A DNA stretch of 64,000 bases from an uncultured cyanobacterium (GTDB lineage: Bacteria > Cyanobacteriota > Cyanobacteriia > Pseudanabaenales > Pseudanabaenaceae). The DNA lies in NCBI GenBank assembly GCA_963703315.1, contig OY969811.1, positions 768,001 to 832,000 of the forward strand, read 5' to 3'. Under the pieces are notes generated by a model that had not been told where the DNA came from, did no database searches, and worked only from the letters and a program-made list of their open reading frames with translations. The number at the start of each line of letters is the position of its first letter. Within the stretch, counting starts at the first letter, position 1. The position numbers were made by a program, and so were the translations under genes. This document shows positions 4,605-53,910 of this stretch, in pieces.

Positions 4605-7229
4605 GTGCAAGCATTAGACCCACAAGAATTATATCCCTTTCAACTTGACCCGTTTCAACTACAGGCGATCGCCGCCTTGCAAGCAGGTAAGTCGGTCGTT
4701 GTTTGTGCGCCAACAGGTTCAGGCAAAACCCTCATCGGTGAATATGCCATTCATGCCGCCTTAGCAGGCGATCGCCGTGTATTTTACACCACCCCACTCA
4801 AGGCATTATCCAATCAAAAGTTACGCGATTTTCGGCAACAGTTTGGCGATGATAATGTGGGGTTACTGACGGGTGATACCTCGGTCAATCGGGATGCGCC
4901 AATTTTGGTGATGACTACGGAAATCTTTCGGAATATGCTCTATGGTACGCCGATCGGTGAGGTGGGGACATCGCTCACGGGCGTGGAGGTGGTAGTCCTC
5001 GATGAATGTCACTACATGAACGATCGCCAACGGGGTACAGTCTGGGAAGAATCGATCGTCTACTGTCCTGCGGAAGTGCAACTAGTGGCGCTCTCAGCAA
5101 CCGTAGCTAATAGCCAACAACTCACCGACTGGATTCACAAAGTACATGGTGATACAGAGTTAATCTATTCTGATTTTCGTCCCGTTCCACTACAACATTC
5201 TTTCTGTAATAGCAAAGGCTTTTTCCCTCTATTAGATAGTTCTCTTCAGAAAATTAATCCGCGCCTGAAACCACTTACTAATAAACCACCAACTAAAGAA
5301 GAAAGACATAAAATCGTCCCCAATATCGGAGCCGTCATATCTCATCTACGCCAGAGGGATATGCTCCCTGCGATTTATTTCATCTTCAGCCGTCGTGGTT
5401 GCGATAAATCGGTTACGGATTTAGGTAATGTTTCCCTAGTTAATGCCGAAGAGTCCCTGCGTCTCAAACCCCAAATTGATGCCTTCATCGCTGCAAATCC
5501 TGAGATTGGAAAGCCTTTGCATATTGACGCTCTTTATCGAGGAATTGCGGCGCACCATGCAGGAATTTTACCCGCATGGAAGGGCTTTGTCGAAGAGCTA
5601 TTTCAGCAAGGTTTAATCAAAGTTGTCTTTGCGACCGAAACTCTGGCGGCAGGAATTAATATGCCAGCTAGAACCACCGTGATTTCCAGCATTTCCAAGC
5701 GCACCGATCGCGGACATCGGTTGCTCAATGCTTCGGAGTTTCTGCAAATGGCAGGACGGGCGGGGCGACGTGGTATGGATGAAGTTGGCTATGTCGTCAC
5801 GGTGCAAACTCCCTTTGAAGGCGCAAAGGAAGCAGCCCATCTTGCTACTTCTAGTGCCGATCCCTTAGTTAGCCAATTTGCACCGAGCTATGGCATGGTG
5901 ATGAACTTGCTGCAAACTCACTCTCTCGAACAGGCTAGAGACCTAGTGGAACGGAGCTTTGGGCAGTATCTCGCCGATCTTAATCTTGCGCCCCAAATCC
6001 AGAACCTTGAGTCAGTCATCGAACAAATCGCTAAGTTAGAGAAAGATCTCGCCTCTGTCGATTTAAAGCAATTGGAAGTTTATGATAAGTTGCGCGATCG
6101 CCTCCGTGAAGAACGACGACTGCTGAAAATGTTAGCTCAGCAATCGGAAGAGATGCGCTTAAATGACTTAGCCTCCTACGCGCCCTATCTGCTATCAGGT
6201 TCACCGCTTACAATTCGCACCAATAAAGGGCTGATTGTGCATACCGTTCTCGCCGCTAAAGTGCAAGGCTCTGGACAATTTCCTTGGTTTGTTTGCCTCG
6301 GACATAACAACCGTTGGTATGTGGTGGGATACAAAGATATTGTGCTAGTCGGTAGTGATTTATTACTGGATGGTGATATCGAATATCCTGCGAAGTTGTC
6401 ACTCAAGCCTGGGCAATCGATTGATGGTGATGAGATCAGCTTGGCGATCGCCCAAAAAATTACACCCTTACCTGATCCTGAGCTTGCGCCTGAAGTGATT
6501 AAACAACAGGCAAGAGTCTTGGCGATCGAAGCCGAAATGGATCGCCATCCTGTTTCTAAAATGAGCGATCGCGGTGCTGTTTTCAAAAAAGTCAATCGTC
6601 TCGAACAGTTGCAGCGTCAGATCGAGTTTCAGCAAAAAGTAGTCAATGAGCGCCGCCAAAGACATTGGCAAGAGTTTATGAGCCTCGTCAATATCCTCCA
6701 GTTCTATGGATGTCTGGAAGATACACAACCCACAGATAAAGGTAAAGTCGTCGCAGCGCTGCGAGGTGAAAATGAATTGTGGTTAGCCCTATGCCTAATG
6801 TCAGGGGAATTAGACAATCTCGCACCGCATCATCTGGCGACAGTCTGCGCGGCGATCGTGAGTGAAAATAGCCGTCCTGACAACTGGATCAAGTTTGGAT
6901 TGTCACCAACTGTTGAAGATGCCCTTGATGGTTTACGCGAGATTCGCCGTCAAATGATGCCCGTCCAACGCCGTTATTTAGTAGATATTCCTGCTTGGCT
7001 AGACTATGAACTGACAGGACTTGTGGAACAATGGGCGCTAGGTATGGAATGGTTTGAGCTATGTCAAAATACTAATCTTGATGAAGGTGATATTGTGCGT
7101 CTGATGCGGCGCACCATTGATTTGTTGTACCAAATCCCCCATGTCCCTAATTTGCCATCGCCGCTTTATCAAGCTGCTAAGCAAGCTGCTCAACTGATCG
7201 ATCGCTTCCCCGTTAATGAAGTAATTTGA
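4605..7229 (+). CDS. Ski2/HelY-like DEAD/DEAH-box RNA helicase
   Basis: APTGSGKT, TPLKALSNQK, DECH, LSAT, TETLAAGINMPA and QMAGRAGRRG motifs; DSHCT-like C-terminus (DEGDIVR). Confidence 0.92.
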   Translation: MQALDPQELYPFQLDPFQLQAIAALQAGKSVVVCAPTGSGKTLIGEYAIHAALAGDRRVFYTTPLKALSNQKLRDFRQQFGDDNVGLLTGDTSVNRDAPILVMTTEIFRNMLYGTPIGEVGTSLTGVEVVVLDECHYMNDRQRGTVWEESIVYCPAEVQLVALSATVANSQQLTDWIHKVHGDTELIYSDFRPVPLQHSFCNSKGFFPLLDSSLQKINPRLKPLTNKPPTKEERHKIVPNIGAVISHLRQRDMLPAIYFIFSRRGCDKSVTDLGNVSLVNAEESLRLKPQIDAFIAANPEIGKPLHIDALYRGIAAHHAGILPAWKGFVEELFQQGLIKVVFATETLAAGINMPARTTVISSISKRTDRGHRLLNASEFLQMAGRAGRRGMDEVGYVVTVQTPFEGAKEAAHLATSSADPLVSQFAPSYGMVMNLLQTHSLEQARDLVERSFGQYLADLNLAPQIQNLESVIEQIAKLEKDLASVDLKQLEVYDKLRDRLREERRLLKMLAQQSEEMRLNDLASYAPYLLSGSPLTIRTNKGLIVHTVLAAKVQGSGQFPWFVCLGHNNRWYVVGYKDIVLVGSDLLLDGDIEYPAKLSLKPGQSIDGDEISLAIAQKITPLPDPELAPEVIKQQARVLAIEAEMDRHPVSKMSDRGAVFKKVNRLEQLQRQIEFQQKVVNERRQRHWQEFMSLVNILQFYGCLEDTQPTDKGKVVAALRGENELWLALCLMSGELDNLAPHHLATVCAAIVSENSRPDNWIKFGLSPTVEDALDGLREIRRQMMPVQRRYLVDIPAWLDYELTGLVEQWALGMEWFELCQNTNLDEGDIVRLMRRTIDLLYQIPHVPNLPSPLYQAAKQAAQLIDRFPVNEVI

Positions 7230-44087: not shown

Positions 44088-44273
44088 AAATTGATGCCCT
44101 ATAAGTTGATGAAATCATTTTTGAATAAATTCTCTATGGTAACTATAACAAATGAGCCACTAAGCGCCATAAATTCTTAGCTTCCCTTGAGGGGATGCTC
44201 TTAGAAGCGGTGCTTGTTGACCTCATGTCGCCTTATTGTGATGACAAGAAAACTTTGTGAAAGGATAGAGTCT

Positions 44274-45860
44274 GTGATCAAAAAATTTCTACTGAGTGCG
44301 TTGCTAGTCTTGTGGTTATTGAGTTTTCCTTTTACAGGTCAGACTTGGGCGCAGACAACCACTTCCCCCTCTCCTACGACTAGCCCTACGGAAACTGCTT
44401 CCCCCACGGCAAGTTCTTCGCCTAGTCCTTCAGTTACGGCATCACCCAGTGCTATGCCAACATCGGCTCCAGCAAGTGGTGATGTCGTCACTTTAACAAA
44501 AGAGCAAAAAGAAGCACTTGACAAACTTCTAGCTCCTGCTCCTGCGGCTTCCCCACTCAACTCAGGGGATACCGCCTTTATGTTAGTAGCGGCTGCCCTT
44601 GTTTTACTGATGACTCCCGGTTTGGCATTTTTTTACGGTGGTTTAGTCAGAACTCGTAATGTGCTGAATACGATGATGATGAGCTTACTGCTCATGGCAG
44701 TCGTTGGTGTTACTTGGGTGCTATGGGGATATAGTCTAGCCTTTGATGTAGTTGCTGACGTAGCTAAGGGTACTTTTGGGCAAGGGCTAGAAAAGTTTAT
44801 TGGTGGAGTTGATTGGGTATTTCTCAATGGGGTCAAATTTGATGCACCCGATCCTGTTGGTTATGCAGGGACGATCCCCCATGCAGTGTTCATGGTTTAT
44901 CAAATGATGTTCGCGATTATTACACCTGCACTGATTTCAGGTGCGATCGTTGAACGGATGAGCTTTAAAGCTTATTTTTGGTTTATTCTGCTTTGGTCTA
45001 CCTTTGTTTATTCACCTCTCGCCCACATGGTCTGGGGACGTGGGTTTCTACAAGAACTTGGAGCTTTAGACTTTGCTGGCGGAACAGTTGTTCATATCAG
45101 TTCTGGTGTTGCGGCTGTAGTAGCGGTTTTGGTAATTGGCTCTCGCAAAGATTTTGCGACTAGACCACATACTCCGCATAATGTTCCATACGTGCTTTTA
45201 GGAATTGGACTACTATGGTTTGGCTGGTTTGGCTTTAACGCTGGTAGTGCGCTCTCTGCTGGTCCACAGGCGGCAGTTGCCTTTGTGGCAACTACTGTCT
45301 CTACTTCGGCTGGTGGTCTCACATGGCTATTAGTTGAATGGGTATTACGTGGCAAGCCAACTGCGGTTGGTATTGCTAGCGGATTTTTGGCTGGATTAGT
45401 TGGGATCACACCTGCGGCAGGTTTTGTCACTCCGATTGGTGCGATTTTAATTGGCTCAATTACATCTGTGTGCTGTTTCATTGCTGTGAGTTTGCGTGCC
45501 AAATTCAAGTTTGATGATTCCCTCGATACTTTCTCTGTGCATGGTGTTGGTGGAACTGTTGGCGCAATGTTAACGGGTGTATTTGCAACAAAAGCTGCTT
45601 TAGGCGGAAAGGATAATCTTGGGCTTTTGGATGGTAATCCTATTCTAATTTGGAAGCAGTTTGAAGGTGTTGCTTTTACTTATATATTTGCCGCGATCGC
45701 TACTTTTGTTATTCTGCAAGTTTTAAAACTGTTTATGGACTTGAGAGTACCTCAGTCTGTGGAAGAGCAGGGAATTGACTTACCTGTCCATGGTGAAGAG
45801 GGCTATGGCAGTGATTTTGGTTCTGGTGTATTTGTTGGTTCAAATGCTTCAGAAGGTTAA
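44274..45860 (+). CDS. amt: Ammonium transporter with a S/T/P-rich N-terminal extension
   Basis: GDTAFML, MTPGLAFFYGG, DFAGGTVVH, WFGWFGFNAGS and DDSLDTFSVHGVGG. GTG at 44274 is the probable start. Confidence 0.95.
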   Translation: MIKKFLLSALLVLWLLSFPFTGQTWAQTTTSPSPTTSPTETASPTASSSPSPSVTASPSAMPTSAPASGDVVTLTKEQKEALDKLLAPAPAASPLNSGDTAFMLVAAALVLLMTPGLAFFYGGLVRTRNVLNTMMMSLLLMAVVGVTWVLWGYSLAFDVVADVAKGTFGQGLEKFIGGVDWVFLNGVKFDAPDPVGYAGTIPHAVFMVYQMMFAIITPALISGAIVERMSFKAYFWFILLWSTFVYSPLAHMVWGRGFLQELGALDFAGGTVVHISSGVAAVVAVLVIGSRKDFATRPHTPHNVPYVLLGIGLLWFGWFGFNAGSALSAGPQAAVAFVATTVSTSAGGLTWLLVEWVLRGKPTAVGIASGFLAGLVGITPAAGFVTPIGAILIGSITSVCCFIAVSLRAKFKFDDSLDTFSVHGVGGTVGAMLTGVFATKAALGGKDNLGLLDGNPILIWKQFEGVAFTYIFAAIATFVILQVLKLFMDLRVPQSVEEQGIDLPVHGEEGYGSDFGSGVFVGSNASEG

Positions 45861-45967
45861 TCCCTTTTTTTAAATAATTCCAGACTCTATAAAATGGACG
45901 GCACAATGTGTCGTCCATTTTAATTTATTCCGTTTTCAATCAAAACAAAAAACTAGGTTGGGGAAAA

Positions 45968-45983
45968 TGTATAAACTTACACA
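45968..45983 (+). promoter_or_regulatory. Putative NtcA site (TGT-N10-ACA) upstream of the second amt
   Basis: TGTATAAACTTACACA. Confidence 0.5.
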
Positions 45984-46070
45984 AAACTGATGTACTTGAA
46001 TCTGTTGTTATGAACGTAATTAATCTTTGCATTTGCACAGGTATATTAATTCGTAGAGGAGAATTTTAAG

Positions 46071-47597
46071 GTGTTGGTCTATAAATCAAATCAAAAGAGG
46101 AGACTCAAGAGTTCAGTGAACTGGACTGCTTGTATCCCCTTAGCAGCAATTATCGGGGTGTTTTGGGTATATGCAGCTACTGCTCAAACTGCTACTCCTG
46201 AACCCCTAACTCCTGAAAAAGTTAAGGAAAGTGTTGATGCTCTCAAAGTTGGATTGGATACTCTTTGGGTAGTAGTTGCAGCATTTCTAGTGTTTTTTAT
46301 GAATGCTGGCTTTGCTCTGGTGGAATCTGGCTTTTGTCGTCGGAAAAATACAGTAAACATTCTTACTAAAAACTTAATCGTATTTGCGATCGCTACCATC
46401 GCTTACTGGGCGATCGGATTTGGATTCATGTATGGCGATAATGGGGGAAATGCATTTATTGGGTCAAAAGGATTTTTCCTGAGTGGCGCAGACAATAGCC
46501 CTGCAACTCTAACTAACTATAAGGGGGATTTCCCTGGTCTTAGTTGGACAGGTGTACCACTAGAAGCCAAGTTCTTGTTCCAGTTGGTGTTTGCAGGAAC
46601 AGCAGCAACGATTGTGTCAGGTGCAGTAGCTGAAAGAATTAAGTTTCTTTCCTTCTTACTATTTAGCTTTGTGCTAGTTGGCGTTTCCTATCCAATTACT
46701 GGACATTGGATCTGGGGTGGCGGCTGGTTGGCAAATTTAGTCAAAGATGCTCAGGGTGCTACCACTGGTTCATTCTTTGACTTTGCTGGCTGTACCGTAG
46801 TTCACTCAGTTGGTGGTTGGGGCGCATTGATTGGTGCGGCAGTACTAGGCTCTCGGATGGGACGTTATGGCGAAGATGGTAAAAATCGGGCTATTCCTGG
46901 TCATAGCATGGGTCTTGCGACATTAGGTTGCTTGATCCTATGGTTAGGTTGGTTTGGCTTCAATCCTGGTTCAACTATGGCGGCTGATGGGCGTTTGATT
47001 TCTCATATCGCTCTGACTACGAATATGGGCGCTTCCGCAGGTGGGATCGCCGCAACAATCGTTGCTTGGCTATATCTTGGTAAGCCTGACCTATCGATGA
47101 TCGTCAATGGTATTTTGGCTGGATTAGTCTCTGTTACTGCCTCTTGCGCTTGGATTACTTTGCCTAGCGCGCTCATCATTGGTGCGGTTGGCGGCACAAT
47201 TGTTGTGTTTGCAGTTGGCTTCTTCGATAAGCTGAAAATTGACGATCCTGTTGGTGCAACTTCAGTTCACCTTGTTTGTGGTATTTGGGGTACTCTGGCA
47301 GTCGGTTTATTTGCTGTTGGACAGAAAACAGACATTGGCGGCGGTTATATCTTGCAAGCTGGTGCTGGTCCTAAGGCTGGTCTATTCTTTGGTGGTGGTT
47401 TCGATCAACTCTTGTATCAGTTGATCGGTATTGCTTCTGTTGGTGGTTTTACCGTTGCTTTTAGCTTTATTGCTTGGTACGCGATTTCTCTAATTACTGG
47501 GGGCATTCGTGTTGAGCCAGAAGAAGAGTTCAAAGGACTTGATATTTCCGAGCATGGCATGGAAGCTTATTCTGGGTTTGGCAAAGAAAGCGAATAG
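46071..47597 (+). CDS. amt: Ammonium transporter (Amt1 type)
   Basis: [35 protein letters not shown] and [11 protein letters not shown]. Confidence 0.95.
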
Positions 47598-52493: not shown

Positions 52494-52644
52494 GTTTCGG
52501 TAGGCTTGTTAAAGAGAGTGGCGGCGCAAAGCGCTGCCACTCTCTTTTTAGTTTTGGTATTACAGGAAGAGATCTATTGATGGCGATCGCTTAAGTCATA
52601 ATTAAGTTTCTAAGAAAAATCCCCAGATTGAAGTGCAAGAAATT

Positions 52645-53556
52645 ATGACCAGCAAAATCTATTTAAAAGGTGTCAAAGCTTACGGATATGTGGGATATCT
52701 ACCTGAAGAAAATGTCTTAGGACAATGGTTTGAAGTTGATGCCACGTTATGGGTAGATTTTGAAAAATCCACCTATAGCGACGAAATCGAAGATACTGTT
52801 AACTATATTTCCTGCATCCGTAAGATTGAAAATCTCATTCAGACTCAGAAATTTAAGTTAATTGAACGCCTAGCAGGAGCGATCGCTGACAGCCTCCTTG
52901 AAGATGCTCAAATCACAGAAGTTGAAGTCAAAATTATCAAGCATCCACCTATTCCCAATTTCTTAGGTTCCGTTGCTGTCGAAATTGGGCGATCGCGATC
53001 GCAAACCGCACCAATCAACAATCAACAATCAATAATCTCAGAATCCAAGCCTCAAAATTCTATTCCCAAAACCGCACCAATCAACAATCGCCAATCAACT
53101 ATCTCAGAGGAATCGAAAATTGTCAGCATTCACACCGATGGCGCTTGTTCTAAAAATCCCGGTCCTGGGGGTTGGGGTGTAGTTATCCATTTCTCCGATG
53201 GCAATGTCAAAGAACTTGGCGGTGGTATTAAAGAAACAACTAATAACCAAATGGAACTCCAAGGAGCGATCGCTGCCTTAGAATTTTTGGCAGTTCAAAA
53301 ACAATCAACTCCTGTCGATCTTTATACTGACAGCAAATATGTCATTGATGGCATTACCAAATGGATTAAAGGATGGAAAAAGAACGGTTGGCAAACAAAA
53401 GACAATAAACCTGTCAAAAATCAAGAATTTTGGCAACAGCTTGATCGTCTCAACTCCTCCAATATCCGATGGCATTGGGTGGAAGGGCATTCTGGCGATC
53501 CTGATAACGAGAGATGTGATGCGATCGCCCGCAGCTACACCGTAAAATCCTCGTAA
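52645..53556 (+). CDS. Fusion of dihydroneopterin aldolase (FolB) and ribonuclease HI
   Basis: N-terminal [19 protein letters not shown]...DTVNY...FKLIERLA...IIK is FolB. C-terminal [34 protein letters not shown] and GHSG.PDNERCD is RNase HI. Confidence 0.9.
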
Positions 53557-53800: not shown

Positions 53801-53910
53801 CTAGCAAGTTTTGCTTAGGATATAAAACCCAAGAAACGAGTGGCGGCGCGAAGCGCCGCCACTCGTTTCTTGGGTTTTGGTTTGTACTAGCTAACTCTTT
53901 TTTTGCTATA
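53801..53910. repeat. Family A element directly downstream of tRNA-Ala
   Basis: Perfect 26-bp arms at 53824-53878, loop GAA; conserved flanks. Confidence 0.8.

Follow-up and report, generated by a model that had tools for sequence, protein, structure and literature searches.

Does the joining of two unrelated housekeeping enzymes in one polypeptide mean that the enzymes work together? This question is raised by an open reading frame in a 64,000-nucleotide stretch of cyanobacterial DNA (hereafter the window), which a first-pass annotation described as a fusion of dihydroneopterin aldolase (DHNA, or FolB) and ribonuclease HI (RNase HI) with both active sites intact. The fusion is real, old, family-wide, and made of known parts. 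The evidence from its relatives favors two enzymes that share a start codon and otherwise work independently.

Two complete domains in one frame

The gene runs through 303 codons in a single frame without a stop (Table 1). Each half is recognized by Pfam (FolB, PF02152, E = 5.9e-32; RNase_H, PF00075, E = 1.2e-44) and exceeds a curated cut-off (NCBIfam TIGR00525 for folB, 93.9 bits versus 72.15; PRK00203 for RNase HI, 188.3 versus 160). The four FolB active-site residues align with E22, Y54, E74, and K100 of the Staphylococcus aureus aldolase 1dhn, and the Tyr, Glu, and Lys residues of DHNA are described as substrate-binding and catalytic (PMC9937910). The five RNase HI residues align with the motifs of the E. 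coli enzyme. None of the nine varies in any of the 28 aligned fusions, which were hand-picked for spread (27 from 120 listed relatives and one from another search) and share the start Met of P0001. The annotated pair of intact active sites is thereby borne out, and both domains are predicted to be active.

Table 1. Features of the fusion gene and its flanks (positions in the window).
Feature	Position	Strand	Details
Terminator-like hairpin between ylqF and fusion gene	52511..52547 (to ∼52555)	.	consensus match only
folB-rnhA fusion ORF (P0001)	52645..53556	+	303 aa; Pfam, NCBIfam; start Met same in relatives
FolB (dihydroneopterin aldolase) domain	52657..52986	+	residues 5-114; E22, Y54, E74, K99
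Disordered Ser/Thr/Pro/Gln-rich linker	52999..53115	+	∼residues 119-157
Recent internal linker duplication	53003..53108	+	two 40-nt copies, 53003-53042 and 53069-53108, 90% alike
RNase HI domain	53119..53535	+	residues 159-297; D165, E204, D229, H282, D292
14-bp inverted repeat right behind stop codon	53585..53627	.	

An AlphaFold2 model of P0001 contains two well-predicted domains (pTM 0.51). The RNase H model superposes on E. coli RNase HI with an rmsd of ∼2 Å, and the 50 fold matches listed are all RNase H. The two Pfam matches are separated by 44 residues, and pLDDT falls below 50 at residues 121–152, in agreement with the low-complexity linker of ∼45 residues that had been annotated. An assembly artifact was considered and rejected, since both domains lie in one open frame in most genomes of the order (see below) and in two more records that carry P0001 at 99%–100% identity on other contigs (P0002 and P0003).

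Relative to 1dhn, the FolB portion has a one-residue deletion directly after the catalytic Lys (window positions 52939–52950). This deletion is present in all 23 FolB proteins of the family in our tree, fused or not, and in none of the others; judging from the sequences compared, it is a family marker. Among the matches listed, close relatives with names are Pseudanabaena and Tumidithrix proteins, and the database labels of relatives read "ribonuclease HI" only or "dihydroneopterin aldolase" only. Because each protein is labeled by one domain, folB is easily overlooked in Pseudanabaena, and rnhA gives the impression of being truncated in the genomes with shifted frames described below. The domain architecture itself is already visible in public annotation.

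The linker of the window gene holds no in-frame ATG, GTG, or TTG, and its longest A run is four, which leaves neither a slip site nor an internal start. It has been lengthened by a duplication whose copies lie 66 nt apart and hence in frame. Across 50 in-frame loci (from 48 of 60 family genomes and from a second group, f53, introduced below), 26 spacer lengths were counted, ranging ∼sevenfold from 20 to 136 codons, with S, T, P, A, K, E, and Q making up ∼72% of residues. An in-frame ATG occurs in only 7 of the 50 linkers, at scattered positions that indicate no conserved internal start; any of ATG, GTG, or TTG occurs in 37, mostly the codon at the FolB end. No conserved linker sequence was seen in the 28 aligned fusions or the 50 loci. 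A conserved slip site was also sought in the in-frame fusions and not seen.

The complete genome that contains the window (G000) was searched for stand-alone copies of either gene, and none above the cut-offs was found, such that the fusion carries its only folB and its only over-cut-off rnhA. A weak second rnhA match (L003) was rejected, as it falls below the cut-off and lies antisense to another ORF, which we take to be phosphoglucomutase-like. The fusion gene is preceded by ylqF and followed by a tRNA-Ala gene, and its flanking genes vary from genus to genus. The hairpin at ∼52511–52555 is related to a second long hairpin at 53824–53878 (40-nt core, 83% alike), and the two flank the fusion gene and tRNA-Ala; they possibly represent a small repeat family or two-way terminators. 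Elsewhere in the window (44214–47597) are two tandem ORFs that are presumably ammonium-transporter-like.

Distribution and history of the fusion

FolB and RNase H searches were compared in all 71 genomes of the order, which form one family (Pseudanabaenaceae by match names) of 12 genera. The in-frame fusion is present in 60 of the 71 genomes and in six genera (g1, 48/48; g2, 2/2; g4, 2/2; g6, 3/3; g7, 3/3; g10, 2/2). In three genomes (G064; G069 and G070) the two genes occupy overlapping frames, in one (G003) they are adjacent and rnhA has its own ATG, in six they are unlinked, and one incomplete genome has no folB match. Thus, 10 of the 70 genomes with both genes lack an in-frame join.

Outside this order the genes are usually separate. 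In a sample of 301 genomes from the phylum, 151 have FolB, and the FolB frames in other genomes of the same class are 107–232 codons long among the matches listed (all but three). Long FolB frames in G113, G149, and G158 were considered as candidate fusions and rejected, with no RNase H inside; that of G158 (L051:2-1234, + strand) spans 411 codons and joins FolB to Radical SAM and TRAM (MiaB-like). Of 61 same-class genomes checked for RNase H, 60 have it, and it adjoins folB in only one (G273); the genes are apart in the other 59 of 60. In the family of G273 (f26, eight genomes), folB and rnhA are adjacent in four genomes, each with its own ATG; the remainder comprise one pair ∼600 nt apart, two unlinked pairs, and one genome without a folB match. 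The ∼600-nt gap (G372, L144) presumably includes a transposase remnant.

A sample of 401 genomes from the class revealed a second in-frame fusion (f53) in 2 of 361 genomes outside the family. These two, G389 and G406, are the only genomes of their order. In an RpoC2 tree they are sister to the family (support 85), and theirs is probably the sister order. Their FolB proteins do not have the one-residue deletion of the family, which argues against a recent copy from it. The mapped architecture (60 of 71 genomes and both genomes of the probable sister order) contradicts the possibility, raised with the first-pass annotation, that close relatives all carry separate genes. A strict threshold missed the fused gene of G009, so other divergent fusions may have been missed. 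No fusion outside cyanobacteria was found among the best 150 representatives, a search that also missed the f53 fusion and so can miss some. Among 148 new representative matches, 69 are tandem RNase H proteins of two or three domains (e.g., P0214–P0219).

To order these events, a tree of RpoB and RpoC2 was used that holds 25 genomes (20 of the 71 and five outgroups; G005, G007, and G068 were left out, G002 is placed on RpoC2 only, and the RpoB row of G003 is partly out of frame). Fused genera occur in all four deep clades. By parsimony, an ancestral fusion requires six changes and an ancestral gene pair ∼nine. The deep nodes are weak (68.9/73, 89.1/77, and 88.1/79), so the gene pair may instead have been ancestral and have fused on several occasions. 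The rnhA genes of g5 and g11 fall in the other cyanobacterial RNase HI clade (support 100) and hence were replaced, and g3, g8, g9, and g12 retain RNase HI of the fused type. Together, the join appears to have been lost or loosened four or five times.

We favor, with a probability of roughly 0.6, an old fusion between two neighboring housekeeping genes that leaves each product to work on its own. The intervening stop codon of a folB-rnhA gene pair would have been lost, and RNase HI would have lost its own start and a C-terminal domain. FolB would still assemble into a ring and make the folate precursor; a ring is expected because the active sites lie between subunits. Each FolB subunit would then have an RNase HI flexibly tethered to it. 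The join would persist mainly because RNase HI depends on the folB start, in that a frame-breaking indel removes the genome's sole RNase HI. Three escapes from this dependence are suggested: a new start codon (g3 and g8), replacement by the other type of cyanobacterial rnhA (g5 and g11), and a one-base slip of RNA polymerase or the ribosome on nine consecutive A (g9 and g12), which would yield free FolB, extended by a short tail, and a share of full fusion. Read in this way, retention of the frame would reflect the need of RNase HI for the folB start and would say nothing of cooperation between the domains. The favored reading is consistent with the fusion of RNase HI to other partners in cyanobacteria (HisI in G014, DnaX in G235). 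Against it, a neutral join would have had to last a long time to be found in two orders, and RNase HI of both fused orders is without the C-terminal domain, which could mean that the job of this domain passed to the ring; the weak deep nodes of the tree also count against it.

This C-terminal domain is common in cyanobacterial RNase HI and absent from the proteins of both fused orders and of g3 and g8. It is a conserved module of roughly 100 residues (∼residues 235–340 in L134:4411-5433, − strand) that has no Pfam match and falls in unnamed Atlas clusters only. If its absence is meaningful, then the FolB ring might be a selected scaffold that makes RNase HI multivalent, with four to eight heads, and replaces the domain; the shift at nine A would then tune the number of heads per ring. 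In favor of such a role, the domain is kept by the adjacent but separate genes of f26 and has no match in G000. However, stand-alone RNase HI of the same type, with neither ring nor extra domain, suffices in g3 and g8, short forms occur elsewhere too, and the spacer varies widely in length. On balance we regard a selected scaffold as doubtful.

The first-pass annotation proposed that the fusion couples pterin or folate status to the removal of R-loops or primers; in a fuller form, pterin binding by FolB would regulate RNase HI and thereby link folate and thymidylate supply to this removal. In favor of this idea, both sites are intact and single-copy, and folB and rnhA are neighbors in three cyanobacterial groups. 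Nevertheless, the linker is disordered and unconserved, no sign of a fixed domain arrangement was seen, and the join has repeatedly been given up within the family, so control of R-loop removal by folate is unsupported. Moreover, folK is present in G000 but unlinked to the fusion gene, the two genes lie apart in 59 of 60 other cyanobacterial genomes checked that have both, and RNase HI has also joined HisI and DnaX. We consider this regulatory role unlikely, and more so than the scaffold.

Overlapping frames at nine adenosines

In G064, G069, and G070, the two frames overlap at exactly nine A, and RNase HI is encoded in the −1 frame. The folB frame crosses the run and ends 2 or 10 codons past the lysine codons. 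At none of the three loci does an ATG, GTG, or TTG follow the last stop before the first catalytic Asp is reached; only ATC codons occur there, including one in frame 3–6 codons upstream of this Asp in all three. None of these genomes has a second over-cut-off RNase HI, and in the shifted genera the enzyme is apparently made only when reading slips. A nine-A overlap of this kind in two non-sister genera is the new observation made here; the gene in the window has no such site.

The run is present in three of three shifted linkers, which represent two lineages (G064; G069 with G070) rather than three independent cases, and in 1 of 48 in-frame linkers. Runs of at least nine A or T are rare in these genomes (two in 307 kb of G069, two in 411 kb of G064, and one in 321 kb of G070, in a scan of about a tenth of each genome). 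The genera g9 and g12 are split by a 100/98 branch and have their runs at different places in the linker, making two origins likely.

G069 and G070 share only 76%–81% DNA identity, yet the run and its flanks are kept beside a 12-nt in-frame indel. The −1-frame RNase HI is under strong purifying selection between these genomes (dN 0.122, dS 1.456), FolB gives dN 0.11 and dS 0.79, and of the four changes in the overlap region, three are synonymous when read in the −1 frame. That both coding parts are under selection would fit the usefulness of both products. In a separate study, a marine sediment run yielded a contig (X3, record 4, 5549–5741; one contig, depth 5.4) that spans the G064 junction with nine other letters and no gaps and keeps the run and the offset. 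Contig X1 is identical to the G064 junction and may be its source, and contigs X4 and X5 do not reach it. At the protein level, P0121 (Thalassoporum per its source), P0122 (87%), and P0123/P0211 (74%) all carry a 50-residue tail that terminates at the lysine run; P0210, of the same cluster, ends earlier in the tail.

We judge real slippage at these genes to be very likely, divided about evenly between selected and tolerated forms. Homopolymer sequencing errors, or translation from the internal ATC without a shift, would account for the overlap in another way. G070 alone is weak evidence for slippage, because frame breaks occur in 11 of its 160 other gene models (none at a nine-A run), and for P0122 and P0123 the evidence is protein-level only. 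By contrast, no other gene model is broken in G069 (0/171) or G064 (0/148), X3 crosses the run without gaps, and in the in-frame fusions the Ile codon ATC is a normal part of the RNase HI sequence. Taken together these explanations are improbable; a non-ATG internal start is the less remote of the two, and sequencing error would be surprising.

If slippage is real, then the offset could still be a tolerated one-base deletion in the A run, rescued by unselected slippage as in the corrective recoding of Buchnera, with no use made of the product ratio. No stimulatory hairpin was found 3' of the three sites (z-scores +0.9 to +1.6; 168–192 of 200 shuffles fold equally well or better), and the g12 RNase HI forms a long branch in its tree. 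Long A runs may also arise by chance in lysine-rich linkers: G041 and G065 have eight A, and G002 (L054; a single genome, 78% complete) has nine, all in fusions that remain in frame. At the G002 run, stops follow soon in both other frames, and slippage there would yield free FolB. Working against a tolerated deletion, the run and offset are conserved between the diverged G069 and G070, and reversion, which should be easy in such a run, is not seen in G069, G070, or X3; beside these points we list the earlier end of P0210. On this evidence a tolerated deletion falls just short of an even chance, and a programmed or selected shift can be proposed tentatively.

Two further observations favor the scaffold: the same −1 shift was reached at different linker places by two genera that are not sisters, and relatives at 74%–87% identity retain the lysine run ahead of the stop. 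On this reading, the number of nuclease heads per FolB ring would be an evolved setting, full in the in-frame genera and partial, with mixed rings, in the two nine-A genera. We think this unlikely. If true, the relative amounts of two unrelated enzymes would be set by recoding within a chromosomal housekeeping gene, and the supply of RNase HI would depend on polymerase slippage. Loss of dnaA was considered as a motive for lowering RNase HI and rejected, given that dnaA and rnhB are present in 5/5. A metagenome scan with the g12 FolB recovered one locus, with separate genes, and a protein search gave no g12 relative beyond P0361.

To our knowledge, few cases of conserved recoding in bacterial chromosomal housekeeping genes are known. 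Fused, slipped, split, and replaced states of these two genes occur in a single family, which offers a natural series for studying the persistence of fusions and the origin of recoding sites, and the nine-A candidate is cheap to test by reporter. Among the matches listed, whose titles and abstract openings were searched, no paper on a folB-rnhA fusion or on the nine-A shift was found. The excerpted text of a study of cyanobacterial RNase HI treats the enzyme by similarity only and does not mention Pseudanabaena (PMC10989914).

Comparison with known systems

The FolB portion belongs to the same sequence family as the S. aureus aldolase and keeps its Tyr/Glu/Lys catalytic set. DHNA is reported to form tetramers and octamers with active sites between subunits (PMC9937910). 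By analogy, the ring with up to eight RNase H domains pictured in the first-pass annotation would carry four or eight tethered copies. A C-terminal partner would be compatible with such a ring, as in the Streptococcus pneumoniae DHNA-HPPK protein (2cg8), in which DHNA also carries a second enzyme at its C terminus. The partner in DHNA-HPPK is the next folate enzyme, whereas here it is a nuclease.

The RNase HI portion resembles E. coli RnhA in its catalytic residues and differs from it by the N-terminal FolB; unlike many cyanobacterial enzymes, it has no additional C-terminal domain. RNase HI is likewise joined to unrelated modules in proteins with a hybrid-binding domain and in the Streptomyces RNase H-acid phosphatase SCO2299 (PMC1950709; PRK07238). 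FolB does not figure among the partners described there, and "dihydroneopterin" has no occurrence in the main text of PMC1950709.

Other joins of RNase HI were seen in single cyanobacterial genomes. In G235 (L077:340-2403, + strand), a whole RNase HI domain (residues 389–526) is inserted in DnaX between domain III and the C-terminal part, which would tether RNase HI to the clamp loader. RNase H lies in frames of 691–710 codons in three of three genomes of this family, with the DnaX domains checked in G235. In G014 (L049:419-1261, − strand; one genome, 75% complete), RNase HI is fused to HisI (PRA-CH), and in G015 (L046) the two genes are adjacent and separate.

The shifted loci have the overlapping frames, missing start, and conserved slippery run (in few sequences) of recoded genes; a 3' structure, which a site of the E. 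coli dnaX type requires and slippage does not, was not found. Without a hairpin that exceeds shuffled sequences, transcriptional slippage, which is known at runs of nine A or T (PMC5009743), is favored over stimulated ribosomal shifting. The same kinds of sites occur in dnaX (A_AAA_AAG in E. coli; slippage at nine T in Thermus) and in the corrective slippage of Buchnera (PMC5009743), and the nine A of G064 end in A_AAA_AAG, with a plain run of nine A in G069 and G070. In contrast to dnaX, the long product of folB-rnhA needs the shift, no 3' hairpin was found, and the site is confined to 3 of 71 genomes.

A close parallel is chlD of magnesium chelatase, for which some genomes have two overlapping frames with a −1 shift at a run of A and others an in-frame fusion, as with folB-rnhA (PMC3711429). 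In E. coli, shifting at a nine-A chelatase cassette reached 40% (PMC3711429). The products of chlD are two subunits of one enzyme, whereas those of folB-rnhA belong to unrelated pathways and the shift is predicted from sequence. With this difference, the shifted genes probably yield free FolB together with a slippage-made fusion, much as chlD or dnaX gives two products.
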